Positions 20,868 to 39,350 of a DNA stretch of 64,000 nt are shown here, piece by piece (the stretch's first letter is position 1; the number at the start of each line of letters is the position of its first letter). The position numbers were made by a program, and so were the translations under genes. The notes under the pieces were generated by a model. The model was given only the letters and a program-made list of their open reading frames with translations. It had not been told where the DNA came from and did no database searches. This DNA comes from Bacteroidales bacterium (GTDB lineage Bacteria; Bacteroidota; Bacteroidia; Bacteroidales; Paludibacteraceae): NCBI GenBank assembly GCA_015061115.1, contig SUXE01000006.1, positions 1 through 64,000 on the forward strand. Reading direction: 5' to 3'.

Positions 20868-20881
20868 AAAAAGTAACGCTT

Positions 20882-21672: not shown

Positions 21673-22189
21673 AGAACTAAATCTGATTAAGGATGAGGCT
21701 CTGAAAAACAAGGTGGAGGCTATCCTACAGAACATTCCAGAAGTGATGGAGCATAAACCAAGTTCGCCATCGGGCAGGTATCATCCGGACTTTGACAATT
21801 CGGATGGAGGCAACATAAAGCACACTAAGGCTGTTGTCAAGGTTGCGGAAAAATTGGTGGACGGATTTTCGTCTTGGGATTATGCTTTGCACAGCATTAA
21901 CGCAGACCACATATATGCGGCTTGCATTCTTCACGACATGTGCAAGTATGGTACAGACCCAGACACCGCAACGCACACAGTGCACGAGCATCCGAAACTT
22001 GCTGGCGATTTGATTAGATCCGATTATCCACATGTTGCGTTTCTTATCGACTCCCACATGGGGAAATGGAACACTTCGAAATATAGTAATGTCACTCTGC
22101 CAGTTCCTGTGACGTTTATGCAGAAAATTGTGCATATCGCTGACTGCATAGCTGCACAAAAGTGGATAAGTGATAAGATACTTGATTAA
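21650..22189 (+). CDS. HD-domain metal-dependent phosphohydrolase
   Basis: H...HD...H...D pattern (RYHPDF, CILHDMCKYG, HTVHEHP, LIDSHMGKW). Strong RBS aaaggaggaaaggaaATG at 21650. Confidence 0.6.
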   Translation: MNVELLRRELNLIKDEALKNKVEAILQNIPEVMEHKPSSPSGRYHPDFDNSDGGNIKHTKAVVKVAEKLVDGFSSWDYALHSINADHIYAACILHDMCKYGTDPDTATHTVHEHPKLAGDLIRSDYPHVAFLIDSHMGKWNTSKYSNVTLPVPVTFMQKIVHIADCIAAQKWISDKILD

Positions 22190-22205
22190 GAAATTAAAAA
22201 AAAGC

Positions 22206-22940
22206 ATGGCAGGATATATCAAGCTATACAGAAAATTCGCTGAATGGGAATGGTATCAGGATGCGAATGTGACACGGGTCTTCCTGCATCTGCTTTTATC
22301 GGCAAATTACGAAGACAAGCGGTGGCGTGGACAACTGATAAAAAGGGGGCAATTTGTCACTAGTTTAGAGCATCTTTCAAACGGGTTGGGGCTGTCTATT
22401 CAACAGATTCGCACTGCACTGGAGAAATTGGAAGGTACTGGCGAGATAGCCAAACAATCAACAAACCAATATACACTGATAACTATTTGTAAATTTGATT
22501 GTTACCAAGCCGAAGGAGAAGCGGAGCAACAAACGGATAACAATCAAATAACAACAACTAAAGAATATAAAGAATATAAAGAAAGAGAAGAAGATAATCC
22601 ACACACATACGCGCATGCGTGCGTACGTGTGCGAGAGGAAGATGAAAGATTCTATGCCGAGATGAAAAGGGGTGGCACGCAATGGCAGGAAGATGCATGC
22701 AGGACGCTTAAGATAACATTGCCCGAACTTGCAGACCTTGTGTGTCAGTTCGAGGTGGAATGCAGAGCAAAAGGCACGACACACATAAGCTGGAAGGATG
22801 CATCAAGCCACTTTATTGATTGGGGTAGAAGACAAGTTCAATCAAGACAAAAACAACAATACTATGGCAGTAGAAATAAAGAAAATATTGACAAAAGGGG
22901 TGGGTTTGAACCAACCGACAACACGGATTACTCAGCATAA
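22206..22940 (+). CDS. Putative replication initiation / replisome-organizer (DnaD-like winged-helix) protein
   Basis: N-terminal IKLYRKFAEWEWYQD...LLLSANYEDK is typical of phage replisome-organizer N-domains; it is followed by a DnaC-like ATPase gene. Confidence 0.45.
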   Translation: MAGYIKLYRKFAEWEWYQDANVTRVFLHLLLSANYEDKRWRGQLIKRGQFVTSLEHLSNGLGLSIQQIRTALEKLEGTGEIAKQSTNQYTLITICKFDCYQAEGEAEQQTDNNQITTTKEYKEYKEREEDNPHTYAHACVRVREEDERFYAEMKRGGTQWQEDACRTLKITLPELADLVCQFEVECRAKGTTHISWKDASSHFIDWGRRQVQSRQKQQYYGSRNKENIDKRGGFEPTDNTDYSA

Positions 22941-23646
22941 GAACAAGATACGCTTGCCATTCTGCAGAGTGAGAAACGACATTGCCAACTACTATGTGGC
23001 AGAAGTGAAAAAGACAAACATGGAGTTGGTTGTGGATGAGGCTTTGACTGAGCCGATAGACCAGACGGCAATGTGGCTGACTGGCAGAACCAAAGAAGAG
23101 CTGGAGACAGGCTTGGCCCAAAGACCCGACCGGAAACTGGAAGACAAGAAACTGGAAATAACCGACGACGAAAAGATTTGGCTGTGTATTATGGGTGTAT
23201 GTGGAAATGGAAAGACGACGCTACTAAAGGCTATCAGCGAATATCTTAAACAGATACACACGTTTAACGACGGCAAATTTATTCATCTAGCCCCTTTTTC
23301 CTTCAAGTATGTGACAGCGGTGGAGCTGGCTGAGATGTACCTGGAAGACCGTAAGACGTACATGGGCATTCGCAACACAAAACTGTTGCTCATAGACGAT
23401 CTAGGAAAAGAGCCAGCTGAGATCTTGGATTATGGCAACAAATTCAAACCGATGGAAGACATGCTGCAGTATCGGTACAATGAGAGGCTAGGCACGATAT
23501 TTACAACGAACATGAATAGGACACAGGCGACCGCATACTACGGCAAGAGAATTGGCGACAGGATGCTAGAGTGCTGTAAGTATGTTGTGTTTGAGGGAAA
23601 AAGTTTTCGTGGCAGACTTGCACAGACGGAAATTCTGTTTCAATAG
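22867..23646 (+). CDS. DnaC/IstB-like AAA+ ATPase (helicase-loader-like replication protein)
   Basis: Walker A GVCGNGKTTLL; Walker B LLLIDDLG. Confidence 0.75.
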   Translation, partial: AVEIKKILTKGVGLNQPTTRITQHKNKIRLPFCRVRNDIANYYVAEVKKTNMELVVDEALTEPIDQTAMWLTGRTKEELETGLAQRPDRKLEDKKLEITDDEKIWLCIMGVCGNGKTTLLKAISEYLKQIHTFNDGKFIHLAPFSFKYVTAVELAEMYLEDRKTYMGIRNTKLLLIDDLGKEPAEILDYGNKFKPMEDMLQYRYNERLGTIFTTNMNRTQATAYYGKRIGDRMLECCKYVVFEGKSFRGRLAQTEILFQ

Positions 23647-23676
23647 TTAATTTATGAATTAAAACAAAAAGACAGG

Positions 23677-24498
23677 ATGAAAACTAAGTTGTTAAAAAAA
23701 ATAAATCGTGCTATTAGATTGTTGCAATCTATTGAAGGCGAGGTCGAGATTGCATATTCTGGCGGCAAAGATTCGGATGTGATTTTGCAACTTGCAAAGG
23801 AATCAGGAATTTCATTCAGAGCCGTTTATAAGAACACGACAATAGATCCGCCGGGTACGATTAAGCACGTAAAGGAGGTGGGGGCTGAGATCTTACACCC
23901 GAAAAAAAACTTTGGGCAGCTGATCGAAGATAAAGGATTACCCAACAGATTTCGCAGATTTTGTTGTGCGGAATTGAAGGAATACAAAGTCGCTGACAAG
24001 GTAGTGATAGGAATAAGAAGGGCAGAAAGCCGAAAGAGAGGCGAACGTTATAAAGAACCGACAGAATGCAGGTATTACGGAAAAAAGACAGAGGCAAACC
24101 ACGTCGTACAATATTACCCGATTCTTGATTGGACGGACGAAGATATAAGGGATTTTGTACTGGATAGAGGCATCAAACTCCACTCCCTATATTACACCGA
24201 AGGAGGAGATATAGACGTGACAAGGCGGTTGGGTTGCATGTGTTGCCCGTTGGCAAGTCGAAAAAAAAGAATTGCGGAGTTTAAAAAATATCCTCTCATG
24301 CTAAGGTACTATGCAAGGCATGCAAATATATTTTTAAAGAAAAAGAAGTTGGACTACGATGACGTTTTTGAATGGCTAGTCAGGGATATATTTTATAGCA
24401 CGCAGAGCAAATTTAACAAGAACAAAGAGAAAAATCTGTTTGATGACAAAATCGACTACAAATCTTTTTTGGAAAATTACTTTAAGATAAAATTATGA
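23677..24498 (+). CDS. Phosphoadenosine-phosphosulfate-reductase-family (PP-loop ATP pyrophosphatase) protein
   Basis: PP-loop IAYSGGKDSDVIL; C-terminal Cys cluster (CMCCPLA). Confidence 0.8.
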   Translation: MKTKLLKKINRAIRLLQSIEGEVEIAYSGGKDSDVILQLAKESGISFRAVYKNTTIDPPGTIKHVKEVGAEILHPKKNFGQLIEDKGLPNRFRRFCCAELKEYKVADKVVIGIRRAESRKRGERYKEPTECRYYGKKTEANHVVQYYPILDWTDEDIRDFVLDRGIKLHSLYYTEGGDIDVTRRLGCMCCPLASRKKRIAEFKKYPLMLRYYARHANIFLKKKKLDYDDVFEWLVRDIFYSTQSKFNKNKEKNLFDDKIDYKSFLENYFKIKL

Positions 24499-24896
24499 GG
24501 TACGTGAAAGTTAAAGTTGTTTGTTTTGACGAACAAGTGGGAAAAAATGTCAACAAAACATTTTTTGTTGATGCAGAATCATTCGCTGACGCAGAAAAAA
24601 AAGTTTATGAAGCAATTTATTCTGTCATGCCACATTCGCTAGCGAATATAAAAAGCATGGGCTATGTTCAGTTTTCAGAATGCAAGCTTACACAGAATGA
24701 TGGTGATTTCTACAAGGTCACGCTTTGCATGGTGTTTGACGACGAAAATACAGGCAGACGAAAAAAGACAAAATACACAATGCTTGTTGAGGCTATGGAC
24801 ACCAAGGATGCCCATTTTATTGTGGAATCAGAGTTGAGAGACGATGAAATTCTTAAGATCGAGAAGTTGGATGTTGAGAATGTAATAAGTTGTTGA
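24495..24896 (+). CDS. Hypothetical phage protein
   Basis: 133-aa ORF. Confidence 0.45.
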   Translation: MRYVKVKVVCFDEQVGKNVNKTFFVDAESFADAEKKVYEAIYSVMPHSLANIKSMGYVQFSECKLTQNDGDFYKVTLCMVFDDENTGRRKKTKYTMLVEAMDTKDAHFIVESELRDDEILKIEKLDVENVISC

Positions 24897-24900
24897 GGCT

Positions 24901-25089
24901 ATGATAAAAAAAGTATTAATAGCATTGTCTTATTTGGTTGTGTTTGCATGGGGTGTGTCTATCGGCAAGATCAAACAGCAACGCACAGAGACAGCATGTC
25001 TGGATGAATATGAAACAATATATTGTCGTATGATGGAACAGAGAGGGGACACAATAACTACCCTTAACACGTTGATAAAGAAAAATTAA
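24901..25089 (+). CDS. Small membrane protein (hypothetical)
   Basis: 62 aa with an N-terminal TM. Confidence 0.35.
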   Translation: MIKKVLIALSYLVVFAWGVSIGKIKQQRTETACLDEYETIYCRMMEQRGDTITTLNTLIKKN

Positions 25090-25094
25090 ATCTT

Positions 25095-25394
25095 ATGGGA
25101 AAAAAAATTTTTATTTCTGGGGCAATCACAAATGATCCTGATCACAAAACAAAATTTGCTGAGGCTGAAAAGCATCTGCAGGAACAAGGATATGTGGTGG
25201 TTAATCCTGCGAAATTGTCGGAAATCATGAACTCTGATGAATTCCAATGGGAGGATTATATCAAAGTTACTATAACTATGCTATGTGCTTGTGACAGTAT
25301 ATATATGCTGCAGGGATGGCAAGAGTCCAAGGGGGCAAGGGAAGAAGAATTGTATGCGTGGGTGCATGGCAAAGAAATAATTCACCAAAATTGA
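25095..25394 (+). CDS. DUF4406-like protein (nucleoside 2-deoxyribosyltransferase-like fold)
   Basis: MGKKIFISGAITNDPDHKTKFAEAEKHL...VVNPA matches the DUF4406 pattern (KIYISGxITG...FxxAExxL...VxNP). Confidence 0.5.
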   Translation: MGKKIFISGAITNDPDHKTKFAEAEKHLQEQGYVVVNPAKLSEIMNSDEFQWEDYIKVTITMLCACDSIYMLQGWQESKGAREEELYAWVHGKEIIHQN

Positions 25395-25401
25395 TACTAA
25401 G

Positions 25402-25857
25402 ATGACGTATGAATTTATAGGCAATATTTTGTCGTTTACAGAGAAAAGTGGGCATAGCTCAAGAGGCGAATGGCGAATGTGGGAAGTTGTGCTGGAGCAT
25501 GACTATACTGGACAATTCCCTAGACGTGTTGTCTTGAATGTGTGGGATGAGAACGTTCAAAACATTGTTGCTATATGTAGCGGCAATAAATCCCAGATAA
25601 GAATGCTTGTGTCTGTAGACGCAAGAGAAAGCAACGGTAGATGGTTTAATGATCTCCGTGCATATCGTGCTGAGGCTGTGAGTGTACAGCCTAACGCAGG
25701 ATATCAGCAACAATATCAGCAGCCGATGCAAGGTGGGCAGTTTGTAGCCCCTGCAGCTCCTGCACAGCCAATCCCCAGTTACCAATCCAATGGTCAAATT
25801 ACTCCTGGATACTCTCAGGGACAATGGCAAGGAGGCACGGCTGATACTCCTTTCTAG
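25402..25857 (+). CDS. DUF3127-like OB-fold protein with a Gln/Gly/Pro-rich tail ending DTPF (SSB C-terminal tip mimic)
   Basis: SGHSSRGEWRMWEVVLEHDYTGQFPRRVVLNVWDENV fits the DUF3127 core. The C-terminus QGQWQGGTADTPF* resembles the SSB DDDIPF tail. Confidence 0.55.
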   Translation: MTYEFIGNILSFTEKSGHSSRGEWRMWEVVLEHDYTGQFPRRVVLNVWDENVQNIVAICSGNKSQIRMLVSVDARESNGRWFNDLRAYRAEAVSVQPNAGYQQQYQQPMQGGQFVAPAAPAQPIPSYQSNGQITPGYSQGQWQGGTADTPF

Positions 25858-25880
25858 AATTAAAAGAAAAAAATAAGAAT

Positions 25881-26285
25881 ATGGGTAAAAGTTTGCATTT
25901 GCCAATGATTGCTAAGTGGTATGGAATGATAGAATCATTGCAAAAACCGCATGAGTATAGATCTATTACTCCATATTGGATTTCGAGGCTGGTAAAGAAA
26001 GAATATGTCGACATGATAAAAGCGGAATGCAGTGTGTCATGGAGGTTTGCCAAGTTGCATATATCATCAAGGATAGAGTTAGCAGGTTATATAGAACTTC
26101 TATTGATAAAATATGGAGACTATATTTTTAAGGAATTTGATTATATCGATTTTTCTTATGGATATACGAAAAGGCACATGGTATGGACACATGAAGGCTT
26201 TGACATTAGAGAAGGTAATCCAGAATGGGGTGCAAAACAAGGTGAGCCGTGTTTTATAATAATGTTGGGTAGAAGGGTGAAATAA
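25881..26285 (+). CDS. Hypothetical protein, weakly ASCH-like
   Basis: 134 aa. The N-terminal MIAKWYGMIESLQKPHEYRSI resembles the ASCH beta-barrel start. Confidence 0.3.
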   Translation: MGKSLHLPMIAKWYGMIESLQKPHEYRSITPYWISRLVKKEYVDMIKAECSVSWRFAKLHISSRIELAGYIELLLIKYGDYIFKEFDYIDFSYGYTKRHMVWTHEGFDIREGNPEWGAKQGEPCFIIMLGRRVK

Positions 26286-26345
26286 TATGAACAACAACCA
26301 TTTTCCTGACATCAGGAAAATGGTAAAACAAAAAAACAAAAAACT

Positions 26346-26642
26346 ATGGAAGTAGCATTAGTTTACACTTACATTTATGGAGTCCTATGGATGTTTTTTG
26401 CAGCTTGCGTATTTTTTGGAGTTGTGATTGCGTATGAAATTGGGCATTACGCTAACATCTATCGAAAGCATGCAAAGTGCAAAAAATGGTTTTGGGAAGG
26501 ATTAAAATTTGTCACAATGAATGTTGGGCAAGTGAAATTTACGAGAATTGCAATTTGTATTTTGCTCTTATCTATAATGTCATTTGGTGCGGTCTTTTTT
26601 GTGGCTGGATTGATTTTGCAAGACAAATATAACATTTATTAG
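26346..26642 (+). CDS. Small membrane protein (hypothetical)
   Basis: 98 aa, 2-3 TM. Confidence 0.4.
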   Translation: MEVALVYTYIYGVLWMFFAACVFFGVVIAYEIGHYANIYRKHAKCKKWFWEGLKFVTMNVGQVKFTRIAICILLLSIMSFGAVFFVAGLILQDKYNIY

Positions 26643-26644
26643 TT

Positions 26645-26854
26645 ATGGAGAAAATAAAAAACGGAATAATAATCAGAGGATTTACATATGAGGCCGTGGA
26701 GCAGACCAGATATCATGGATGCGATGATTGCGACCTTGCGGACGAATGCACTCAGAATACTTTTTATGACAACCCTTGCGAGTTGCTGAACGATATGTAT
26801 TTTGATACAGGGTTCAAGGCTATAATGTTCAAAAGAGTAGAAGATGAACGTTGA
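26645..26854 (+). CDS. Small Cys4 (CxxC-x5-C-x9-C) protein, paralog a
   Basis: Shares KNGIII...YEAV...CxxCDLxDxC with ORF 27626. Confidence 0.45.
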   Translation: MEKIKNGIIIRGFTYEAVEQTRYHGCDDCDLADECTQNTFYDNPCELLNDMYFDTGFKAIMFKRVEDER

Positions 26855-27083
26855 ATTTTGTGTGAAAATTTCTGTCGGTAAAAGACGGTCTCATATTGTA
26901 GACGATGTTGTTTACTATCGACGTTACATGGATTTTGATTTTGTTTTGCGTTGGCAATGGTATTTTCATTATATCTCTGCTCTCGTTCAAGTTCGTCATC
27001 CAGAACTGTTCGTCAGGACTTTTATTGGCAGAACTGATATGCTGACTTCAGCAGAGTATATTGAAAAAAACGTGCTGACTTGA
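26844..27083 (+). CDS. Hypothetical phage protein
   Basis: 79-aa ORF. Confidence 0.3.
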   Translation: MNVEFCVKISVGKRRSHIVDDVVYYRRYMDFDFVLRWQWYFHYISALVQVRHPELFVRTFIGRTDMLTSAEYIEKNVLT

Positions 27084-27274
27084 TTCGTGCCCAAAAAGCC
27101 AAGCTCACTAAAATTAAAGGAATTCCAGTACAATATGATCTGTTTGGATACAACCAGACAGAACGTGTAGAAAAGGTTGAGGCTATTGAAAAGAGACTGA
27201 AGGATCTTGAAAATGGGGTTGTTGATTTTTGGGTTTATGGCGATTATATTAATAAAATAAAATCTTATTTGTAA
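27080..27274 (+). CDS. Hypothetical phage protein
   Basis: 64-aa ORF. Confidence 0.3.
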   Translation: MIRAQKAKLTKIKGIPVQYDLFGYNQTERVEKVEAIEKRLKDLENGVVDFWVYGDYINKIKSYL

Positions 27275-27277
27275 GTT

Positions 27278-27607
27278 ATGGTAAAAAACGTAGAAAAAAA
27301 AATTGTCATTGGAGACAAGGAGTATCTTATTACTTTGATGTTAATAGATGTCTATTCTGGAGCAGGATCTTGGTTTAAGGTAAGAGTTGACGAGAGACAA
27401 AAAGGCAAAAGGAAATGGGTTGCTATAAAACTGACAAGTCTGGAAGATGCGAACTTGGCAAGATTGTGGGGAAAGCATATCGAACACACATCTTATTACA
27501 TCTACTGTATAAAGTCTCGCATTCCTGACATAGATAAGATTTTGCAAGAACTGAAAAATAAACTTGCAGAGAGTATCAAGGAACAGGTTTTAGAAATTAA
27601 GTTATAA
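27278..27607 (+). CDS. Hypothetical phage protein
   Basis: 109-aa ORF. Confidence 0.4.
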   Translation: MVKNVEKKIVIGDKEYLITLMLIDVYSGAGSWFKVRVDERQKGKRKWVAIKLTSLEDANLARLWGKHIEHTSYYIYCIKSRIPDIDKILQELKNKLAESIKEQVLEIKL

Positions 27608-27625
27608 CTAGGAAGAGTGTAGAAA

Positions 27626-27853
27626 ATGGCAGAAGTTAAAAACGGAATCATTATAGATAACGTCATCTATGAGGCTGTAGACTTTAATGGAAAAGATTAT
27701 GACGGAACGTCTGCATGTACTAATTGTGATTTATTGGACGTATGTGCGTCTTTGTATAATAAAAATAGTTTGTGCCAGACTTTTGTCTATGAAAGCAAAT
27801 TGTTAAGCGAGTATGTGATTTTTAGAAAAAGAAAAGAAAAATGGAATTGTTAG
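27626..27853 (+). CDS. Small Cys4 (CxxC-x5-C-x9-C) protein, paralog b
   Basis: MAEVKNGIIIDNVIYEAV...CTNCDLLDVC...C parallels ORF 26645. Confidence 0.45.
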   Translation: MAEVKNGIIIDNVIYEAVDFNGKDYDGTSACTNCDLLDVCASLYNKNSLCQTFVYESKLLSEYVIFRKRKEKWNC

Positions 27854-28311
27854 ATATATTGCAAGCCTTTAAGGAAGGCAAAATAACTCAATACAGAGGA
27901 CATGGTGATCAGAAATGGCAAAGTGTATGTTGTGGTCACAAATGGAACACAGAAAAATTTGAATATAGGATAAAGCCAGATCGAGAGATATATCCCTATA
28001 CAAGGGAGGAGCTGTTTGAAGCACTCTCTTTGTGTGGGCCAAAAGTTATGCTAAAAAGTACAGGAGAATTGTTTTATATCTCTGATGTGCTTTCAGATAA
28101 GATACTATTGAAAAAAGACAGAAAAGGGTCAGAAATATGCGTTTCATATCAGGACTTTGCAGACGGGTACTGCTGGAATAACTCTATGTGGCCAACGTCT
28201 TGTACGTTATGTGGCTGGGATTCGCAAATATATGAGATTGTTGAAGAACCAATTTATGATAAAGGAGTTCGATGGGGCACAGAAAGAATTGTTAAAAAAA
28301 GAGAAGTATGA
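27841..28311 (+). CDS. Hypothetical phage protein (Cys-rich)
   Basis: 156-aa ORF. Confidence 0.4.
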   Translation: MELLDILQAFKEGKITQYRGHGDQKWQSVCCGHKWNTEKFEYRIKPDREIYPYTREELFEALSLCGPKVMLKSTGELFYISDVLSDKILLKKDRKGSEICVSYQDFADGYCWNNSMWPTSCTLCGWDSQIYEIVEEPIYDKGVRWGTERIVKKREV

Positions 28312-28598
28312 CAGAAAAAGACAACAGATTTTATAAGCATTTAAGGAAATGCATCTCAAAGATTGATGAGTTTGGGGAAATGACAATATATCCGTCTATG
28401 TACCCGAATTTTATTGCACCTTTTGTTCCGTTCAGGAGTACCATTTTTGGTTGCACTTTTGATTGTGTTCCTGATTGTATTATACAAACAGATGGCAGCC
28501 TATGCGTAGGCTTAATTGATTTTATATCATTTTTTGATGATTATGATTCGGTTGAAAAGGCTTTGTTTAACCATTTTAACATTGACGAAGATGAGTAA
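28308..28598 (+). CDS. Hypothetical phage protein
   Basis: 96-aa ORF. Confidence 0.4.
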   Translation: MTEKDNRFYKHLRKCISKIDEFGEMTIYPSMYPNFIAPFVPFRSTIFGCTFDCVPDCIIQTDGSLCVGLIDFISFFDDYDSVEKALFNHFNIDEDE

Positions 28599-28851
28599 GG
28601 TATTGGAAGCACTGCATTTAGTGCAAGAAATGAAGAAACGCAACAAAGAAAGGGAGTTGTCGGCTGTATCTTATAGCGAAGATAAAAGAGAATACTTCCG
28701 TATAGCGTCGCGTCGCGCGAGAGCTAAAAATTATGAGCAGATGCGTGCGTACCATAGGGAATACTATCGTCTGCATAGAGAAGAGATTAGAGAGAGGCAA
28801 AGGGAATACCGCAGGAAAAGAAAGGAGTCAGATCAAAAATCTAAAAAATAA
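28591..28851 (+). CDS. Small highly basic Arg/Lys/Glu-rich protein (hypothetical)
   Basis: Start chosen at the overlapping ATGAGTAA junction; REYRRKRKE-type sequence. Confidence 0.35.
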   Translation: MSKVLEALHLVQEMKKRNKERELSAVSYSEDKREYFRIASRRARAKNYEQMRAYHREYYRLHREEIRERQREYRRKRKESDQKSKK

Positions 28852-29153
28852 TGCTCATGAGACATAAAAATGATAATATGTATGTTTATGTTGTGTCTAA
28901 GATCAAGTGGCAAGAGACACAAGTCATAAGACATGGGAATGTGGTGTATCGCACATGTGAAGGTTCGTACAAGCACTTGAAGGTAATTCGCAAGACTATG
29001 CATGAACGGTTTTCCAATGGGAATGGCTGGAAACTCCCTAAAGTGAAGTATATCTGCGACGGTGGAGTTTGGGATTCATCAGTTAAAATGGGAGTTTATC
29101 TTAAAACATTAGATAGAGAAGAGAAAAAACAAAAACAAATAAAAAATGAGTGA
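28851..29153 (+). CDS. Hypothetical phage protein
   Basis: 100-aa ORF. Confidence 0.4.
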   Translation: MLMRHKNDNMYVYVVSKIKWQETQVIRHGNVVYRTCEGSYKHLKVIRKTMHERFSNGNGWKLPKVKYICDGGVWDSSVKMGVYLKTLDREEKKQKQIKNE

Positions 29154-30405
29154 TAGAATAACACATGCGTCGGTATTCAGTGGCATTGGTGCTTCTGAAC
29201 TGGCTGCGGAAATGTTAGGGTGGAAAAATCTTTTCCATTGCGAAATTAACGAATTTGGACGTAAGGTGTTAAATTATCATTTCCCTAATGCAAGAAGCTA
29301 TGAAGATGTTACAACAACAGATTTCTCCGAATTTCGGGGAAAAGTTACGGTTCTTACAGGAGGATTTCCTTGTCAGCCGTTTAGCTATGCCGGGAAGCGA
29401 AGAGGCTCGGAAGATGACCGCTACCTCTGGCCGTACATGCTCAATTGCATTAACCAAGTCAGACCCACTTGGTTTATTGGCGAAAATGTTGCTGGAATCA
29501 CCACGATGGTATTCCCCAGTGAGGATGTTAAGGTGGGAGAGCAAGCCGATTTGTTTGGAGAAGGTGACGGTTATGAGATATATGAAAAACGTGAAAAATA
29601 CGTCCTCGGTGGAATCTATGGAAACCTTGAAAATATCGGATATTCCGTCCAGACATTCATTGTTCCGGCTTGTGCCGTGGGAGCTCCCCACCGACGAGAC
29701 AGAATTTTTATCGTCGCACACAGACCTTCTGAAGACTCCGACTGCGTTCGATGCGGAGGTGACGACAGGGAAGAAGAACCCCAAAGCAGGAAATTCGGGA
29801 TGTCTTGCGCAGGAAGTGATGAGTGGATATGTAAAAAAGAGGATGCTAGGCCTTCTCCCAACACCGACAGCACAAGACAATCCACACCCGACAAACAAAA
29901 TAGACGAGAATGGGAGAAGATGGACGGAAGGAGCGAAAGCAAGTCATTCGATGGGGTTGGCAGACATGGCTTATATGGGATTGCTTCCGACACCGCAAGC
30001 GAGCGAGGGAGAAAAATTCGCAAACAAATACAAACCAAGCTCTCAAATGGGGCGAAGTCTTTCCGCAATGGCAGGTGGAGGATTGCTTCCTACGCCAAGG
30101 GCAAACGTAGTGACAGATTTGAATCTGAACAGCGAGGGGCTTGCAAATCGGAATCATGCGAATTTAGAAGAAAGAATTGCAGCATGCGTTTGTCGCTTGA
30201 AGACAGATGGCGACATTTCCCGACTCAATCCCCTGTTTACAGAGGAAATGATGGGTTTTCCTTTAATGTGGACAGCCTTACCATTTCTTTCGCAAAATGG
30301 AAAAAAGAAACACTAAAAGCCTATGGCAATGCGATTGTGCCGCAGGTGATGTATGAAATATTTTTAATGATAGATGAAATTGAAAAAATGAAAAAAAATA
30401 TATGA
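29146..30405 (+). CDS. DNA (cytosine-5)-methyltransferase. The conserved core is in frame 1 and the target-recognition domain (TRD) is in the +1 frame, between two compensating frameshifts; it may be recoded, phase-variable or mis-sequenced.
   Basis: Frame 1 carries motif I FSGIGASELA, IV GGFPCQPFS, VI ENVAG and VIII RRDRIFIVAHR (up to ~29724), plus motif X YGNAIVPQV at the 3' end (from ~30307). The +1 frame (ORF 29288..30316) carries four ~40-aa repeats LLKTPTAFD/LLPTPTAQD/LLPTPQASE/LLPTPRANV, analogous to the TRD TL(T/S)A motif, and the pre-motif-X segment EEMMGFPLMWT. The second shift site GG_AAA_AAG_AAA (30299-30309) is an X_XXY_YYZ heptamer in register. Confidence 0.75.
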   Translation: MSDRITHASVFSGIGASELAAEMLGWKNLFHCEINEFGRKVLNYHFPNARSYEDVTTTDFSEFRGKVTVLTGGFPCQPFSYAGKRRGSEDDRYLWPYMLNCINQVRPTWFIGENVAGITTMVFPSEDVKVGEQADLFGEGDGYEIYEKREKYVLGGIYGNLENIGYSVQTFIVPACAVGAPHRRDRIFIVAHRPSEDSDCVRCGGDDREEEPQSRKFGMSCAGSDEWICKKEDARPSPNTDSTRQSTPDKQNRREWEKMDGRSESKSFDGVGRHGLYGIASDTASERGRKIRKQIQTKLSNGAKSFRNGRWRIASYAKGKRSDRFESEQRGACKSESCEFRRKNCSMRLSLEDRWRHFPTQSPVYRGNDGFSFNVDSLTISFAKWKKETLKAYGNAIVPQVMYEIFLMIDEIEKMKKNI

Positions 30406-30495
30406 CATTAATTCGACAAATCATTTCAAGTATCAATTTGAAATGATTTGTTTTGTGTTAAAAACATTCTATTTTTGCAAAAAAATAACCTTAAT

Positions 30496-31785
30496 ATGAA
30501 ATTTAAAGAAATTAGCCTAAACTTACTTGAGTTAAACGTAGGTCAAATTGAGGGGTTGCCTGGTAATCCACGAAAAATCAGTGCTGAGAAATTAGAGTTG
30601 CTGAAAAAAGATATACAAGATTATCCCGAATTACTGGAAATGCGAGGCTTGATTGTGTATCCGCATAATGAAAAGTTTGTTCTGATTGGAGGAAACATGC
30701 GATATCGGGCAATGTTGGAGTTAGGGTATGATACAGCTCCATGCATTGTGGTGTCTAAGGATGCCAGTGTAGAAAAGTTAAAAGCTTATACAATTTTGGA
30801 CAACGCACCATTTGGCGAATGGGATTGGGAAGCGTTGTCTAATGATTGGGATGAGGCTAGTCTAATAGATTGGGGATTAACTATGCCAGAATTCGAAAAA
30901 GAGGAAACAAAAGAAAGTGCTGAAGACGATGATTTTGATGAGGCTAAAGATGTAATAGAAACTCGATGCCAGACTGGAGATTTGTGGTTGCTTGGTGAGC
31001 ATCGGTTGCTTTGCGGTGATTCTACTAAAAAAAATGATGTTGCACGTCTAATGGATGGGGAAAGGGCTTCGTTGTGGATAACCGATCCTCCTTATAATGT
31101 GGCTGTTACAAACAGTAAGGGAATGACGATTGCGAACGATAATATGTCGGCTTCCGATTTTTATAGATTTCTTGAATTTGCTTTTGCTTCAGCGTCCTCT
31201 TTTTTGGTGGATGGATGCCCCTTTTATGTTTGGTTTGCGTCAAAAGAGCATATTAATTTTGAGACAGCACTAAATGCAGTTGGCTTAATAGTTCGTCAAG
31301 AACTGATATGGAACAAAAATGCTTTTATCTTAGGACGTTCGCATTATCAATGGAAGCATGAACCATGCTTGTATGGTTGGAAAGGAGATGTGTGTAAATA
31401 TTTTACTAATTCGAGAAATCAGTCAACCGTCATATCTGATGAATTGGAATTAAATATTGATAAAATGAAAAAAGAACAAATGCGTGATTTGTTAAAAGAA
31501 ATTTTGTCAGATAAGATGCCAACTTCCGTGATCGATGAAAACAAACCCTTAAAAGATGAAGACCACCCGACCATGAAGCCGGTAAGACTGTTTGGCTATT
31601 TGATTGCAAATTCGTCGCAAAATAATGATATTGTATTAGACAATTTCGGTGGTAGTGGAACGACTTTGATTGCCTGTGAACAATTAGGACGCAAGGCGAG
31701 ACTTATAGAAATAGATCCTCATTATTGTGATGTCATAATTGCAAGATGGGAAAAGTATACTGGAAAAACAGCAGAGAAGATATAG
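30496..31785 (+). CDS. ParB-like nuclease domain fused to an N6-adenine/N4-cytosine DNA methyltransferase
   Basis: N-terminal ParB/Srx motif (GGNMRYRA). DPPY motif ITDPPYNV; SAM motif FGGSGTT. Start chosen at MKFKEISL. Confidence 0.85.
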   Translation: MKFKEISLNLLELNVGQIEGLPGNPRKISAEKLELLKKDIQDYPELLEMRGLIVYPHNEKFVLIGGNMRYRAMLELGYDTAPCIVVSKDASVEKLKAYTILDNAPFGEWDWEALSNDWDEASLIDWGLTMPEFEKEETKESAEDDDFDEAKDVIETRCQTGDLWLLGEHRLLCGDSTKKNDVARLMDGERASLWITDPPYNVAVTNSKGMTIANDNMSASDFYRFLEFAFASASSFLVDGCPFYVWFASKEHINFETALNAVGLIVRQELIWNKNAFILGRSHYQWKHEPCLYGWKGDVCKYFTNSRNQSTVISDELELNIDKMKKEQMRDLLKEILSDKMPTSVIDENKPLKDEDHPTMKPVRLFGYLIANSSQNNDIVLDNFGGSGTTLIACEQLGRKARLIEIDPHYCDVIIARWEKYTGKTAEKI

Positions 31786-31787
31786 GT

Positions 31788-32171
31788 ATGGATAATTTTG
31801 TCAAACGTATAAATCCGTTGTCTAAACCAGTTGTGTATACTGCAGAATCATTGTGGGCTAAATTTGTTGATTATTGTTGTTGGTGTGAATGTAACGCTAT
31901 TGAATTACCAGCAGCCATAAGCCTTAAAGGAAAAAAACAAGTGGATTGTCGTACAGAAAAAAAAATAACGGTAAAAAGGCCTTACTTGATAAGTGATTTT
32001 TCTTTGTGGGCTGATATTGACAATTGGGAGGCTTTTAAAACAAAAAATATGCGAAGTGATGGCTTTGCAAAGGTTATTGATTATATAGAAAAAACAATAA
32101 AAAATCAACAAACTATAGGCATAGTTACAGGAATGTACTATGCGACGGTTAAAACACGGCATTTGATGTGA
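31788..32171 (+). CDS. Hypothetical phage protein
   Basis: ORF beginning MDNFVKRIN, just after the methyltransferase stop. Confidence 0.4.
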   Translation: MDNFVKRINPLSKPVVYTAESLWAKFVDYCCWCECNAIELPAAISLKGKKQVDCRTEKKITVKRPYLISDFSLWADIDNWEAFKTKNMRSDGFAKVIDYIEKTIKNQQTIGIVTGMYYATVKTRHLM

Positions 32172-32207
32172 AGATTTTTTTTTATTTTTGCAAAAAAAAT
32201 GTAAACT

Positions 32208-32882
32208 ATGAAAAGGACTTTTTTGTTAATGTTGCTCTTAGCAGTTTTTGCTCTTAGCAGTGCACAGGTAATGTGTGTCAAGGTGTATGAGGATTTGGAT
32301 CGTTGGAAAAGGCTAAAGCAAGAAAATGTTATTGCTTGGGCAACTACACTAAAAGATTCTGCATTTTATGGCTTTAACCAAGTTGACGAATTAGAAGGTG
32401 AATATGTGATTCTGTTGGACTCTTCTCGTAAGGTGGCGGATTTGAAGGATATCACTATGGATTTTTTCAGCAAAAAATTCACGCTCACGTCGCATTGGAA
32501 AAGTGACATAAAAAACAGAATGGAGCTAAAGGAAACAGGCACTAATTCGATGTATTTTCATGCAGTATATACAAAAGCGTCTTACTTGGCTTCTGGGTTA
32601 GCGGAACATGTCATTGATATTGATGTTGTTTTTATCGTGAAGTTTAAGGAAGACAAAATTAAGATGACAATCGCTATACCAAGTTATCAATATTATAGCG
32701 GAACAAAAAGCGACGTAAGGAAGATTGGCGTATATCCGCCGTTTCAGTCGTATGGGACAAGTCGGAAGGAGCGTAGAGACGACACGTTTTTTTGCAAGGC
32801 ATACATTAAAGCATGTGAATGTATTCTTGATTATACAAAATCGTATTGCGAATACTTAAATAAAAACTTAGGTGAGTGGTAG
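32208..32882 (+). CDS. Secreted hypothetical protein (signal peptide)
   Basis: MKRTFLLMLLLAVFALSSAQ signal peptide. Confidence 0.5.
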   Translation: MKRTFLLMLLLAVFALSSAQVMCVKVYEDLDRWKRLKQENVIAWATTLKDSAFYGFNQVDELEGEYVILLDSSRKVADLKDITMDFFSKKFTLTSHWKSDIKNRMELKETGTNSMYFHAVYTKASYLASGLAEHVIDIDVVFIVKFKEDKIKMTIAIPSYQYYSGTKSDVRKIGVYPPFQSYGTSRKERRDDTFFCKAYIKACECILDYTKSYCEYLNKNLGEW

Positions 32883-32905
32883 AGCGAAAGTATAAAAAAA
32901 CAAAA

Positions 32906-32937
32906 AAATGCAGGATTACAGTCCTGCATTTTTTTGT
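32906..32937 (+). terminator. Rho-independent terminator (ATGCAGGA-ttacag-TCCTGCAT plus T7)
   Basis: Seen directly; it ends the early/modification module. Confidence 0.6.
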
Positions 32938-33003
32938 TTCGATTTTTGTTATGGCTGTTTTTTATGATTCTTAAAAAGATATATTTGTGGCGTTTGAATA
33001 TAT

Positions 33004-33300
33004 GTGACAATGGAGGTAAGAAAAAGAATTAATCTAAGTGTTGATGTTGACACGTACAGTCGGTTGTCTCGATTTGCTAAGAGTCGACGATACAAGAATG
33101 AATGCGAACTGGTGATGAGCATGATAAATGTTATGCTTGATTGCCTTGTTCCTATTGAAAAAAAGCGTTTCGATATACCAGAGGACGATGCAATGTATAT
33201 CAATGAAATGTTTGCTCAAATGTCTTATTCAGCAACAAAACAGGCAGATGGTGATGGAGGAGTCGCAATCACAAGAAGAAATAAAAAAAACAATGTATGA
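33004..33300 (+). CDS. Hypothetical phage protein
   Basis: 98-aa ORF. Confidence 0.35.
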   Translation: MTMEVRKRINLSVDVDTYSRLSRFAKSRRYKNECELVMSMINVMLDCLVPIEKKRFDIPEDDAMYINEMFAQMSYSATKQADGDGGVAITRRNKKNNV

Positions 33301-33632
33301 AAGTAGATGGAGTATATAGACGTTATATATCATCACGTCGATGGCTGAGGCTAAGACGTGAAAAGATGACTGTTTGCCCATTGTGCGAGGAATGTGCTAA
33401 GGATGATAGATGCACTGCAGCAACGGAAGTGCATCATCGAATACCTGTTGAGTCTGTTAAGTCTTACACGGAACAACAACGCTTGATGTTTGATTTCACT
33501 AATCTTATGTCGGTCTGTCATGAGTGTCATGTTAGACTTCATATAGGCTTAAAGAAGCAAACTAAAGAAGAAACCATAAAACGGAATAAAGACCAAGTAG
33601 AAAGAATCATTGAAAAATTTTTTGCTGATTAA
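33297..33632 (+). CDS. HNH endonuclease
   Basis: CPLCEEC...HHRIPV...CHECHVRLH zinc-finger HNH motif; sits adjacent to the terminase genes. Confidence 0.8.
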   Translation: MKVDGVYRRYISSRRWLRLRREKMTVCPLCEECAKDDRCTAATEVHHRIPVESVKSYTEQQRLMFDFTNLMSVCHECHVRLHIGLKKQTKEETIKRNKDQVERIIEKFFAD

Positions 33633-33633
33633 T

Positions 33634-33723
33634 GGGGGGGTGTTTTTTTTATAGGGGGGAGGGGGTGCAAACCCCGCCCCTAACCCTCTTTCACACACGT
33701 GCAATTTTTGGGGGCTTGGGGGG
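33634..33723 (+). other. G-tract element (G7, G6-a-G5, G4, G6, plus a C4-g-C4 partner) between the HNH and TerS genes; candidate cos/pac site or G-quadruplex-forming element
   Basis: Seen directly: atggggggg...atagggggga gggggtgcaaaccccgcccc...tttttgggggcttgggggg. The minus-strand ORF 33549..33752 here is spurious (it translates as a Pro/Gly run). Confidence 0.4.
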
Positions 33724-33754
33724 ATAAGAAAAATGACAAAAATGACACACATAT

Positions 33755-34450
33755 ATGCGTAAGGGAACTAGAAATAAAAAAAAAGAAAAAATGCTAGAAG
33801 AATTATCTGCATCTAGGGGGATAATTAAAATAGCATGTGATCGATCGGGAATTTCTCGCAACACTTTTTATGAATGGATTAAACAAGATCCCGAATTCAA
33901 AAAAGCTGTTGACATTATACAGGAAGAGCAAATAGATTTTGTTGAAAGCCGTTTGTTGGATAATATCAATGAAGGAGATACTCAGGCATCTACATTTTAT
34001 TTGAAAACAAAAGGAAAGGGCAGAGGTTATACAGAGAGAGATATCCCACAAACTTCTGCTGCATTAGTCCAAAACAACGCACCTGACATAGATGTCATGA
34101 AACTTGTGCAAAGTAAAATTGACGAATTGACAGCATTGCTCAAAGAACAAGGTCGATATTCTTCAGCTTACAACATACAAATCAAAATTGCGGCACAATT
34201 GTGTGTAAAGACAGATATGTTATTTGAGGAAACGTTGAAGCCAAATCATAAAGCGATAAATGTTCAGATATCACGTGAGGGGAATGAGCGAGAAACAATA
34301 TCTGCAACAGAGTCTTTATATAAGCAATATGCAGTTCACTGTCAGACTGCATTGCGTGCATTAGGACTTAATACAGATGGTAAGAAAATAGAAATAGATG
34401 ACGATTCTTTTGATCGTTTTTTTGAGGATATGAATAGAGAAGAAGAATGA
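33755..34450 (+). CDS. Terminase small subunit (HTH)
   Basis: N-terminal HTH (ASRGIIKIACDRSGISRNTFYEWIKQDPEFKKAV); immediately upstream of the large terminase. Confidence 0.6.
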   Translation: MRKGTRNKKKEKMLEELSASRGIIKIACDRSGISRNTFYEWIKQDPEFKKAVDIIQEEQIDFVESRLLDNINEGDTQASTFYLKTKGKGRGYTERDIPQTSAALVQNNAPDIDVMKLVQSKIDELTALLKEQGRYSSAYNIQIKIAAQLCVKTDMLFEETLKPNHKAINVQISREGNERETISATESLYKQYAVHCQTALRALGLNTDGKKIEIDDDSFDRFFEDMNREEE

Positions 34451-36219
34451 CAGAGGAACACAAACAGGAAGAAAGAGAGTGGAAACACAAAACAATCAGC
34501 GAATTGATAATGCTGCGTTGTTTAATGTTCACCACTTATCTACATGCATTTAATGTAGATGATAGATTGACTAAATACGTGCGACAAGTAATTGCATATC
34601 CGGCAAAACACAATTTGTATGAGTTGCTGGCTGTGCGTCGGTTTTTTTATTTGCTGGACAAATATCAGTTTAAAGCAAGTAAATTTAAAAAATTTGTTAA
34701 ATGCTATGAAACTTTGAAGTTTAGCGGAATAAATGAACGTCGTCGCTATAAATTGACTCCTATTCAATGTTTCCAATACGCTAACATTTATGGTTTTGTC
34801 GACAATCAAGGTCGACGATTGACACGTGACGTGTATATATTTGTCCCACGAAAATTTAGCAAAACAACATCGACTGCAGGAATGGCCGTCTTTGAATTGT
34901 TCTGTGGCGAATATAATGCACAAGCATATTGTGCAGCAAATTCATACAAACAAGCAAAAATTTTATTTGATGAAATTCGAAAAATTCTTAAATCAATAGA
35001 TCCAGGTCAACGACATTTTAAGATTAATCGAGAAATGGTTACATGGGATGATGGAAGAAAAGAATCGTTTTGCCAATGTCTAGCATCAAATTCAGACACA
35101 CAAGACGGTTTGTTTGCATCTCTTGTCATTATGGATGAATATAGTCAAGCAAAAGATACTGCTGGGCACAATGGAGCAGATCTTAAAAACACATTGACTA
35201 CATCTATGGGGCCACGAAAAGAACCTCTTACTGTTGTTATAACAACTGCGTCTAGTGTTATAGATGGCCCATGTGCTAGAGAGATCGCAGGAGTCAAAAA
35301 AGTTCTTAAGGGAATGATCATTAATGATCGAGTTTTTGCATCTTTGTTTATGCCTGATGTAGACGATGCAGAAGATGATCCAGCGACTTGGGCAAAAGTA
35401 CAACCCCATATGGGCATTACTGTTGAGCCAGACTTTTATGAAGAAGAATACAAAAAAGCCCTTTTGTCTTCAGATTCAATGCTTGCGTTCCGCACTAAAT
35501 TGCTTAATAAATTTGCAATTGATGAGACTTTAAGTTGGATATCACTAAAGTTTATTAAAGAACATAGTGTTGATAAAGATTTGTGTAGTTTACAAAGGGA
35601 TTATCCTGACGCAATGTGTGCGATTGATTTAAGTGAAAGCGATGATTTTTCAGCGGTCACGTTTGGAATATATGATTATGAAAAAAAATCGTTTTTTTTT
35701 CATACAAAATATTTTTTTCCTAGAGGTGCTTTGGAGAAACATGAAAATCGACGTTTGTATGAAATATGGGCAGAGCAGGGATATCTAACGTTGACAGAAG
35801 GAGATGTTATAGATTATGAAGTAATTGCTAATTATATTCTTGACACGAATAAATATGTTCGTGTACTTAACATTGGCTACGACTCCTGGAAAAGCACTGA
35901 ATTAATTAATATATTAGCGGCTTGCTTAGGTGCTGATGCTCCTTATGTGCTAAAGTCTGTGTCTCAGACTTATGGCAGTTTTAATGCACCTGTTGAATCG
36001 TTTGAGCATGGAATAAAAACGGGGAAAATTAAAATAAATCGCAATCCAATAAATGACTATTGTTTTGCGAATGCGGTTATTGATGTTGACAATATGGATA
36101 ATAAAAAGCCAATTAAACGTGGGTCTGGAACAGGTAAAGGGAAAACAAATAAAAACAAGATAGATGGGGTAATAACTAAATTAATGTGCATGCGGTTGTT
36201 TATTGATTGTGTAAGATAA
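34447..36219 (+). CDS. Terminase large subunit
   Basis: 590 aa. Walker-A-like PRKFSKTT; Walker B/DE LVIMDEY; C-terminal nuclease-like region. Confidence 0.8.
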   Translation: MTEEHKQEEREWKHKTISELIMLRCLMFTTYLHAFNVDDRLTKYVRQVIAYPAKHNLYELLAVRRFFYLLDKYQFKASKFKKFVKCYETLKFSGINERRRYKLTPIQCFQYANIYGFVDNQGRRLTRDVYIFVPRKFSKTTSTAGMAVFELFCGEYNAQAYCAANSYKQAKILFDEIRKILKSIDPGQRHFKINREMVTWDDGRKESFCQCLASNSDTQDGLFASLVIMDEYSQAKDTAGHNGADLKNTLTTSMGPRKEPLTVVITTASSVIDGPCAREIAGVKKVLKGMIINDRVFASLFMPDVDDAEDDPATWAKVQPHMGITVEPDFYEEEYKKALLSSDSMLAFRTKLLNKFAIDETLSWISLKFIKEHSVDKDLCSLQRDYPDAMCAIDLSESDDFSAVTFGIYDYEKKSFFFHTKYFFPRGALEKHENRRLYEIWAEQGYLTLTEGDVIDYEVIANYILDTNKYVRVLNIGYDSWKSTELINILAACLGADAPYVLKSVSQTYGSFNAPVESFEHGIKTGKIKINRNPINDYCFANAVIDVDNMDNKKPIKRGSGTGKGKTNKNKIDGVITKLMCMRLFIDCVR

Positions 36220-36344
36220 TATTTAGCGGTTTTTTAATCGCTTTTTTATGTTTTTTGGCATAAAACAAACAAAAAACCGCTTTTCCCTTAAAAAAATGGT
36301 ACCAAAATCACCTAAATCTATGTATAGTAGAGAGCATAGATTTT

Positions 36345-37568
36345 ATGGGAATATTTAAAGCCATTGGAAATATATTCAAACGTAGTACTCAAAATGGGCA
36401 AAGAGAAGATTCTTCTTTGCCTAGATTGGGTGCATCCACGATTTTTACGACTGCTACAGGAGGCAATCCGCTAAATATTTCAACAGTATATCACTGTGTT
36501 GATTTCTTATCAAGCAAAATTGCAGCATTGCCAATCCAATATATGCGATTGAAAGGAGATATCTATGTCGAAGACAAAGAACATCCATTGCATTATCTTT
36601 TGCAGGTGCAGCCTAACCCGGCAATGTCTGCTTTTGATTTTTGGAAAATGGTTGTTCAGTACGTGTTGTTGAGGGGTAATGCTTATATTGTTCCTGTGTA
36701 TGGTGGAGAACTCTTTTATTCTTCGTTGGCACTGCTAGACCCCGACAATGTTACACATAATACAGAAAATGATACTTATACGATTATAACTAGTAATTTG
36801 ACGTTAAATGAAGATGAAGTAATACACATCAAGAATTTTAGTTTAGATGGCAAAAGGGGGTTGTCAACCTTAACATATGCAAGACTTACATCAGATATTG
36901 CATTAGTATCAGATAAAGAGTCTCTTAATCGAATGGAGGTAGGAGTAAGAGGAATTGTTTCTAATGCAAGTGGAGATGTACGTGGGTTTGGTGCTTATCA
37001 GGATAAAGAGCTTAAAAAAACGGCTATAGATTTAGACGCTCGATTTAGAGGAGGAGAAAGAATTGTTAGTTTGCCAGGACAAACACAGTTTTCGCCAATA
37101 GCTCTAACGTCTGCTGATATGCAATTTTTAGAAACTAAAAAGTTTAATTTGAGAGACATATGCCGTTTTTTCAGCGTGTCACCAATTTTTGTTTATGATG
37201 ATTCAAGCAACAATTACAAGACAGCAGAATTGGCTAATGTAGAATTGATGTCTGATACGTTGTACCCCTTTTTAAGGAAAATAGAACTTGAATTGCATCG
37301 CAAACTTGTGCCTCGTTCATTGAGTTGTAAACGACAATTTAAATTTAATTTGCTTGATTTGCTGGCTTGTGATTTGGACAGTAAAGTCAAGTATCAGACT
37401 TCTACGATTGCGGCAGGTCTTGCAACAGTCAATGAGTGGAGAAAAAAAGAAAACAAGCCAGCTGTTGAAGGAGGTGACACAGTGTTAGTGTCAGCAAACC
37501 TTAAAAGTCTTCAAAATCTTATAAATGAAAATAAACAAAATGGGGAAGGACAAACAGGTATTAATTAG
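36345..37568 (+). CDS. Portal protein (HK97 family-like)
   Basis: 407 aa, positioned between the terminase and the prohead protease. Confidence 0.6.
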   Translation: MGIFKAIGNIFKRSTQNGQREDSSLPRLGASTIFTTATGGNPLNISTVYHCVDFLSSKIAALPIQYMRLKGDIYVEDKEHPLHYLLQVQPNPAMSAFDFWKMVVQYVLLRGNAYIVPVYGGELFYSSLALLDPDNVTHNTENDTYTIITSNLTLNEDEVIHIKNFSLDGKRGLSTLTYARLTSDIALVSDKESLNRMEVGVRGIVSNASGDVRGFGAYQDKELKKTAIDLDARFRGGERIVSLPGQTQFSPIALTSADMQFLETKKFNLRDICRFFSVSPIFVYDDSSNNYKTAELANVELMSDTLYPFLRKIELELHRKLVPRSLSCKRQFKFNLLDLLACDLDSKVKYQTSTIAAGLATVNEWRKKENKPAVEGGDTVLVSANLKSLQNLINENKQNGEGQTGIN

Positions 37569-38202: not shown

Positions 38203-38213
38203 AAATATATAAT

Positions 38214-39329: not shown

Positions 39330-39350
39330 CTTCATAAAACGAACTGATAT

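Follow-up and report, generated by a model that had tools for sequence, protein, structure and literature searches.

The 64,000-nucleotide (nt) stretch of DNA analysed here, referred to as the window, originates from a Bacteroidales bacterium of the Paludibacteraceae (GCA_015061115.1, contig SUXE01000006.1, positions 1–64,000, forward strand) and carries a phage C5-cytosine DNA methyltransferase locus whose conserved parts are distributed over two reading frames. One uninterrupted open reading frame (ORF) in frame 1, which we term alpha, covers the whole locus, and a second one in frame +1, termed beta, lies entirely inside it on the same strand (Table 1). The original prediction had read this layout as a single enzyme whose target-recognition region is entered and left by two compensating frameshifts, the second at an A_AAA_AAG heptamer. 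The layout is real as sequence, but the comparison with related loci points to its having been misread as recoding: alpha and beta appear to be a real, ordinarily functioning gene pair, and their product is most likely a heterodimeric C5 methyltransferase like M.EcoHK31I, probably with several modules.

Table 1. Features of the nested methyltransferase locus; positions are counted from the first letter of the window.
Feature	Position	Strand	Description
Alpha gene	29146-30405	+	Uninterrupted 419-codon ORF in frame 1, 419 amino acids (aa); catalytic domain (motifs I-VIII), spacer and C-terminal motif X segment
Alpha motif I, FSGIGA	29176-29193	+	Frame 1; S-adenosylmethionine binding; within the alignment to M.HhaI residues 16-123
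Alpha motif IV, GGFPCQPFS	29359-29385	+	Frame 1; catalytic Cys; M.HhaI alignment
Alpha motif VI, GENV	29479-29490	+	Frame 1; M.HhaI alignment
Alpha motif VIII, PHRRDRIFIVAHR	29686-29724	+	Frame 1; aligned with M.HhaI GIPQKRERIYMICFR
Alpha spacer, aa 194-352	29725-30201	+	S/R/G/E/D/K-rich, stop-free, otherwise unconstrained
Alpha C-terminal conserved segment, DRWRHFPTQSPVYRGNDG...KWKKETLKAYGNAIVPQV	30202-30348	+	Holds motif X
Alpha motif X, GNAIVPQV	30325-30348	+	Frame 1; wobble in frame 0 only
Beta gene	29288-30316	+	Frame +1, 342 codons from the ATG at 29288, wholly inside alpha, ends KKKH*
Beta candidate start codons	29288, 29300, 29306	+	ATG positions; 29300 is the family-conserved one
Beta target-recognition region	29726-30220	+	Four LLxTPxA-headed modules
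Beta module head LLKTPTAFD	29726	+	Translation of frame +1
Beta module head LLPTPTAQD	29852	+	Translation of frame +1
Beta module head LLPTPQASE	29981	+	Translation of frame +1
Beta module head LLPTPRANV	30083	+	Translation of frame +1
Beta motif IX, RLNPLFTEEMMGFPLMWT	30221-30274	+	Variation restricted to third codon positions of frame +1
Dual-coded segment 1	29300-29724	+	Beta N-terminal domain (MTATSGRTC, DPLGLLAKMLLES, LFRLVPWE) over alpha motifs IV-VIII
Dual-coded segment 2	30202-30313	+	Alpha C-terminal segment overlapping the beta C-terminus
A_AAA_AAG heptamer	30301-30307	+	Within GG_AAA_AAG 30299-30307; X_XXY_YYZ in register with the +1 (beta) frame

By its motif content the locus is a C5-cytosine DNA methyltransferase, with motifs I, IV, VI, VIII and X in alpha and motif IX in beta. 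Alpha scored 124 bits against PF00145 (cutoff 22 bits) and 105.9 bits against TIGR00675 (cutoff 100.65 bits), above the curated cutoffs of both profiles, and was matched by phrog_363 at 2e-67. An AlphaFold2 model of alpha built on 83 sequences gave predicted local distance difference test (pLDDT) values of 75–96 for residues 1–196, 24–40 for residues 197–382 and 83–90 for the carboxy-terminal helix 397–418, and a Foldseek search placed its ordered part on the large domain of M.HhaI and M.HaeIII over ~190 columns (E = 3e-11, probability 1.00). The middle of alpha is unconstrained and is predicted to be disordered. The enzyme class and the placement of motifs I, IV, VI, VIII and X in frame 1, both put forward in the original prediction, are borne out by these profile and fold matches and by the confirmed coordinates and translations.

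Homologues of beta are numerous, numbering over 4000 when clustered at 90% and forming 1611 clusters at 50%, and show ~40% identity over ~98% of the beta length; those matching the +1 ORF carry no Pfam domain, and phrog_1008, annotated as 'DNA methyltransferase', matches beta at 1e-27. In 224 of 245 beta homologues only motif IX was present and the protein ended 22–29 residues after it, and the combination of motifs IV, VI, IX and X was found in none of the 245. For a comparison with M.HhaI we joined the two frames by hand into a composite protein, in which motif VIII aligned with GIPQKRERIYMICFR and HhaI residues 268–314 (RKLHPRECARVMGYPD...QFGNSVV) aligned weakly with beta motif IX and then alpha motif X. 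Over motifs VIII, IX and X the composite is collinear with M.HhaI, and therefore both chain breaks sit at the borders of the small domain. Against the Pfam profile it scored 9 bits above frame 1 alone.

Judged from their translations, the four recognition modules of beta are distinct types sharing the LLxTPxA head alone. The heads of the four ~40-aa repeats described originally are thus all present, but the modules are not copies of one another. Module types reappear in differing combinations among the homologues. Four relatives (P0003, P0008, P0013 and P0021) are nearly identical (95–100%) in the flanks of 29726–30220 and differ by whole recognition modules, with P0003 lacking exactly 42 residues between two LLxTPTA heads and P0008 and P0013 carrying a last module of a different type. 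All module differences among these near-identical relatives leave both reading frames open, and the pattern suggests that modules are gained, lost and exchanged by recombination at the LLPTP-coding repeats. Further relatives, among them L021 and L028–L037 with recognition regions of 888–1005 nt as well as P0091, P0095 and P0152, have a long insert after motif VIII; its +1 frame reads as HNH/AP2-like (DFPFLNQWKWKINNSGYVYR...) and the proteins have PF13392 on record, suggesting a homing-endonuclease-like domain within beta.

We gathered 240 related loci from collections of viral, genomic and metagenomic sequences and, together with the window, screened 241 sequences, in 204 of which all four marker motifs could be located; the counts of frame layouts refer to these 204. 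In 188 of them motif X shared the alpha frame, the +1 frame held motif IX together with the xTP motifs, and both frames were open, so that the pattern sought in homologous prophages is present across several phyla. The hosts comprise Bacteroidales, Sphingobacterium, Chitinophagaceae, Flavobacterium, Planctomycetes, Omnitrophota, Peregrinibacteria and many Firmicutes, and the amino-terminal identity across the loci goes down to ~41%. Many full-length frame-1 relatives share the S/R/K/E-rich middle (e.g., P0002, P0028, P0042 and P0079). A canonical single-frame relative was found neither among the 240 loci nor among the 245 beta homologues, and motifs IX and X shared a frame in none of the 240. 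The search yielded only the indel-bearing hybrids P0001, P0030, P0062, P0160 and P0178 and one beta-plus-motif-X variant, P0260.

The loci that depart from the two-frame layout carry one added indel (e.g., 'RVFFFIAHR' in L220, and L092, L202 and L166) and look like sequencing errors or decay. In a small share of the database entries, namely these four, L189 and the five hybrid proteins just named, alpha and beta segments are fused through a single extra indel, and the fusions are probably sequencing errors or decaying copies; some of them sit in NCBI records and could mislead homology-based annotation.

The openness of the alpha frame was assessed on 74 of the 90 loci that make up the non-redundant set, which in full served for the junction, start-codon and wobble tests. 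Across the recognition region, which spans 55–247 codons, the alpha frame contained no stop in any of the 74 loci and the third frame contained 2–19 per locus; in the window, the alpha spacer has 0 stops in frame 0 versus 15 in frame +2. When synonymous codons were permuted with the beta amino-acid sequence held fixed, the probability of an open alpha frame had a median of 0.002 over the 74 loci and amounted to 0/500 permutations for the window. The description of five of six frames as stop-free is incorrect, as across 29300–30300 only two forward frames of the window are open, the third forward frame having 26 stops and the reverse frames 4, 8 and 16. The segment is indeed GC-rich (0.47 at 29288–30316 versus 0.39 for the whole window, with 0.39 in the single-coded amino terminus and 0.29 in the single-coded carboxy terminus of alpha), and ORF length alone remains unable to pick the frame, as had been cautioned. 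However, because the shuffles nearly always close alpha and the third forward frame holds 26 stops, GC-richness or composition alone does not explain the openness, and we rejected it as the cause. A local rise in GC may be a signature of long dual-open regions in AT-rich phages.

Nei–Gojobori sums over 200 close pairs, which are not independent of one another, yielded a ratio of non-synonymous to synonymous substitution rates (dN/dS) for the recognition region of 0.18 in frame +1 and 0.93 in frame 0. The proposed coding of the recognition modules and the pre-motif-X segment, corresponding to motif IX, in the +1 frame is correct. Site entropies showed wobble in the beta frame at MMGFP and in the alpha frame at GNAIVPQ, with the periodicity changing over within ~10 nt at both junctions. 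At the entry this changeover coincides with the end of motif VIII, where the first GLLPT(P/V) of beta overlaps (W/F)(I/F)(V/I)A(H)R of alpha. By these measures the alpha frame is held open by selection, and each frame is selected where its known motifs lie.

Within dual-coded segment 1, the mean entropy of alpha four-fold wobble sites was 1.25 bits over the motif IV–VIII overlap versus 1.89 bits upstream of the beta start (Mann–Whitney p = 1e-4). Several alpha codons were nearly frozen, namely GCT (90/90), GAC (88/89), GTT (86/90), CTC (84/90) and CCC (78/90), and their wobble positions fix the beta residues L, T, L, S and P, respectively, rather than serving stop avoidance. At the 3' junction, alpha W..[FW]P is kept where beta varies, and alpha DG[LIV]P..VD and beta MMGFP..WT are both kept on the same nucleotides. 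Judged by these site patterns, the overlap is truly dual-coded, and purifying selection on the beta amino terminus constrains the alpha wobble positions. The variant P0260 (660 aa) combines a beta-type amino terminus, about ten LLPTP modules and motif IX with a subsequent in-frame FFPTQSPV...RNESIKAYGNAICPQV containing motif X; its FFPTQSPV stretch reads SQLNHQF* in +1, which gives the impression of a duplicated motif IX region that is read in two frames. This variant suggests that both readings are functional peptides.

The 90 loci fall mainly into two classes with regard to the beta start, with an ATG at position −59 from motif IV in 51 and at −38 in 25. The 25 loci of the second, Firmicutes-type class have AGGAG or GGAG 7–9 nt before the ATG; there, the beta ORF opens a few codons past a stop, the sequence is ACAAAGGAG(A/G)nnTTTTATGA, and the Shine–Dalgarno sequence and the ATG are embedded in LTKE(S/D)FYE of alpha. 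In the Bacteroidota-type class the −59 ATG, corresponding to 29300 in the window, is formed by the Tyr-Glu codons of alpha. The Tyr codon making this start is TAT in 52 of 55 cases, compared with TAC over TAT by 68:22 for conserved Tyr residues elsewhere in the gene. On this pattern beta has its own conserved internal start, and we infer that it is translated independently. What the sequences themselves demonstrate is the nesting and its conservation, the selection acting on either frame, and conserved signals for an internal start.

In the proposed two-chain enzyme, alpha would supply the large catalytic domain with motifs I–VIII, followed by an unstructured spacer of ~160 residues, whose sole requirement would be the lack of a stop codon, and by motif X. 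Beta (~29300–30316) would be translated from its own start inside alpha and would supply the overprinted amino-terminal domain, the string of recognition modules and motif IX. The two chains would jointly provide every part of the canonical enzyme and assemble as a heterodimer, with no frameshift needed. Association of alpha and beta would follow the example of M.EcoHK31I, for which it was demonstrated experimentally; the enzyme would presumably be active, and each module would confer a separate specificity.

The alternatives differ from the nested pair chiefly in how the +1 segment is connected to the remainder of the enzyme. A double programmed frameshift, +1 after motif VIII (~29725) and −1 at 30301–30307, would yield one canonical chain, and it agrees with the collinearity of the composite with M.HhaI through motifs VIII, IX and X, with the 9 bits that the composite gains against Pfam and with the heptamer, which is in register with the +1 frame as described. 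What does not hold is the role of the heptamer as a special recoding site: AAAAAAG occurs 69 times in the A-rich window, once at 29833 inside the same gene, and the 93 nt on its 3' side showed no RNA structure that could stimulate a shift (minimum free energy −12.5 kcal/mol, z = −1.29, with 22 of 200 shuffles folding as well). Neither junction has a conserved slippery site in the 90 non-redundant relatives. The entry was correctly described as free of homopolymers, and it also had no slippery sequence in any lineage examined; at the exit, relatives carry no slippery heptamer (e.g., CAAAGTGGCGGCAGGAATCGATAA and GAAAATGGAGAAGAGAATCCTTGA), and in some of them the +1 frame passes beyond motif X. 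Relatives with 84% identity in the amino-terminal half read KWRRE at this point, and therefore no run of six A (A6) can encode the exit there. Moreover, a double frameshift gives no need for the open alpha spacer, for an upstream beta start with a Shine–Dalgarno sequence or for selection on the beta amino terminus, all of which are seen, nor for a beta frame open 290–530 nt upstream of the recognition region. We rejected it on the grounds of the missing slippery-site conservation, the missing RNA structure and the frequency of the heptamer in the window, and regard it as very unlikely, since the nested gene fits instead. Seen from the alpha frame, the heptamer is a by-product of the Lys-Lys-Glu codons and not a conserved recoding site. 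The genes might also be nested and, in this phage lineage only, a partial −1 slip at A_AAA_AAG might add an M.AquI-like beta-plus-motif-X product. The register of the heptamer, the beta stop 3 codons on and the existence of a natural beta–motif X fusion in P0260 are compatible with such a slip, yet the heptamer follows from the alpha KKE codons, is non-conserved and without downstream structure, and a second copy of motif X has no evident need, making this variant very unlikely.

That alpha alone is the enzyme, with the +1 ORF as a compositional by-product or relic, would agree with gene callers and most annotations, which list only alpha, and with the scores of alpha above the Pfam and TIGR thresholds. 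Against this, alpha is without motif IX or a structured recognition domain, and beta is under purifying selection of its own, has conserved start signals and terminates at a fixed distance past motif IX in 224 homologues, so that we judge this reading highly improbable. Sequencing or assembly indels, or a decaying pseudogene of a normal single-frame methyltransferase gene, could be argued from the occasional relatives with one extra indel, such as L220, L092, L202 and L166. Yet the same two-frame geometry recurs in 188 independently assembled or isolated loci, each frame is open and under selection, and none of the 240 loci gathered has motifs IX and X in one frame. The identical layout in 188/204 loci therefore excludes the two sequencing indels considered originally, an assembly error was rejected as the layout is shared across three collections, and the probability left to this group of explanations is practically nil. 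Phase variation of methylation specificity through length changes of the A6 tract, likewise raised at the outset, would have a tract to act on at the exit junction. A6 is short for phase variation, the entry junction offers no repeat as a substrate, the tract is missing in relatives and a change of its length by one base would cut alpha short ahead of motif X; this possibility is barely conceivable.

Several points weigh against the heterodimeric nested pair. Its support for this phage and its close relatives consists of sequence comparison and models. Beta alone had no match in the Pfam and NCBIfam profile search. Its AlphaFold2 model is weak, with a mean pLDDT of 58.7 and values of 70–83 for the amino-terminal residues 31–130, and it is too poor for the fold search, which gave no meaningful match. 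The alignment of beta motif IX with M.HhaI is collinear yet statistically weak, the motif being assigned also by pattern. The dN/dS sums rest on the non-independent close pairs described above. The Bacteroidota-type beta starts are without a Shine–Dalgarno sequence, which is expected in this phylum but leaves them putative as initiation sites. Finally, a link to E. coli and M.EcoHK31I, sought by blastn with the 5' half of alpha against complete E. coli genomes, gave no match.

Beyond the single locus, we lean cautiously towards a wider reading in which M.EcoHK31I would be the single characterised member of a very large cross-phylum phage and prophage class of C5 methyltransferases from fully nested same-strand genes, with the whole recognition domain, comprising swappable modules and motif IX, in beta, a stop-free and otherwise unconstrained alpha spacer of 140–330 codons that solely tethers motif X, and ~140 plus ~25 codons dual-coded under selection in both frames. 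If true, few natural cases of overlapping protein-coding genes in bacteria and phages would be as long or as well replicated, and standard annotation would miss the specificity subunit of nested C5 methyltransferases. The family amounts to hundreds of natural, mutually independent replicates of a ~1-kb nested gene, and its single-frame-constrained regions beside dual-frame-constrained ones are a test bed for the evolution of dual coding and for overlap-detection methods. Swappable modules on a separate subunit suggest that phages could re-target anti-restriction methylation with the catalytic core untouched. Natural split C5 methyltransferases are already scaffolds for targeted methylation (PMC2836561), and the nested family would add many more for engineering.

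The gene following the locus (30448–31785, + strand) is a 445-aa ORF whose carboxy-terminal part resembles N6/N4 DNA methylases; the phage therefore has two adjacent DNA methyltransferase genes. P0073, for which PF01555 is recorded, is a chimera of the alpha amino terminus and the carboxy terminus of this neighbour. A megablast search with window positions 20000–40000 against 50,697 phage records gave no match, leaving the host phage without a close cultured relative, and the nearest DNA matches of the methyltransferase, at ~70% identity, are in the Bacteroides phages BS-TP4 and BKO1-TP3.

As to existing annotation, Bacteroides phage and plasmid records have alpha alone annotated or beta called hypothetical. 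Since gene callers present alpha as a whole 'DNA cytosine methyltransferase' and in most cases omit beta or leave it hypothetical, the likely specificity subunit is invisible in most phage and metagenome annotations. GenBank already lists both nested coding sequences in Paenibacillus larvae phages, e.g., TADHANA_54 and TADHANA_55, and a publication on these phages lists both genes uncommented (PMC6070908). In the searchable literature, which is incomplete, our search for a family-level description returned only M.EcoHK31I, M.AquI and this Paenibacillus phage listing.

M.EcoHK31I of E. coli HK31 (Lee, Kam and Shaw 1995, as described in PMC2836561 and PMC3404938) has motifs I–VIII and X in its alpha and motif IX in its beta polypeptide; both polypeptides are required, and internal Met codons are the beta starts (PMC2836561, PMC3404938). 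Likened by this published description, the window pair, as well as its 188 relatives, has beta wholly nested in alpha on the same strand in another frame, and agrees with M.EcoHK31I in having motif IX in beta and the remaining motifs, including X, in alpha. In contrast, the literature puts the recognition domain of M.EcoHK31I in alpha, whereas the modules of the window enzyme are all in beta and the alpha spacer has a dN/dS of 0.93 and pLDDT values of 24–40. The two enzymes may truly differ in this respect, or the published assignment may have relied solely on position. The window enzyme furthermore has several modules instead of one, and the ~140 amino-terminal residues of its beta are under selection, overprinted on alpha motifs IV–VIII. 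M.AquI, listed together with M.EcoHK31I as an exception to the monomeric C5 methyltransferases (PMC3404938), is likewise a heterodimeric enzyme split within the variable region (Karreman and de Waard 1990, as summarised in PMC3404938). Its genes are, however, not nested, and its small subunit holds the distal variable region with motifs IX and X, a division seen here only in the rare variant P0260.

The Paenibacillus larvae phage pair TADHANA_54/TADHANA_55 (Tadhana, MG727700) is homologous to the window pair, with tblastn covering 92% of beta, and shares the +1 nesting and the placement of motif X (alpha) and motif IX (beta); the TADHANA pair has a Shine–Dalgarno sequence before the beta ATG. 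It differs in an identity of only ~28% and in a shorter beta of 234 aa with three modules. The Bacillus phage enzymes M.SPRI, M.phi3TI and M.H2I are single-chain, single-frame multispecific C5 methyltransferases. From general knowledge, with no sequence comparison, the window enzyme resembles them in being phage-borne, in placing tandem short modules between motifs VIII and IX on one catalytic core, and in modules that appear to be gained, lost and exchanged, their function here being the presumed one of recognition; unlike these enzymes, it would consist of two chains encoded in two frames.

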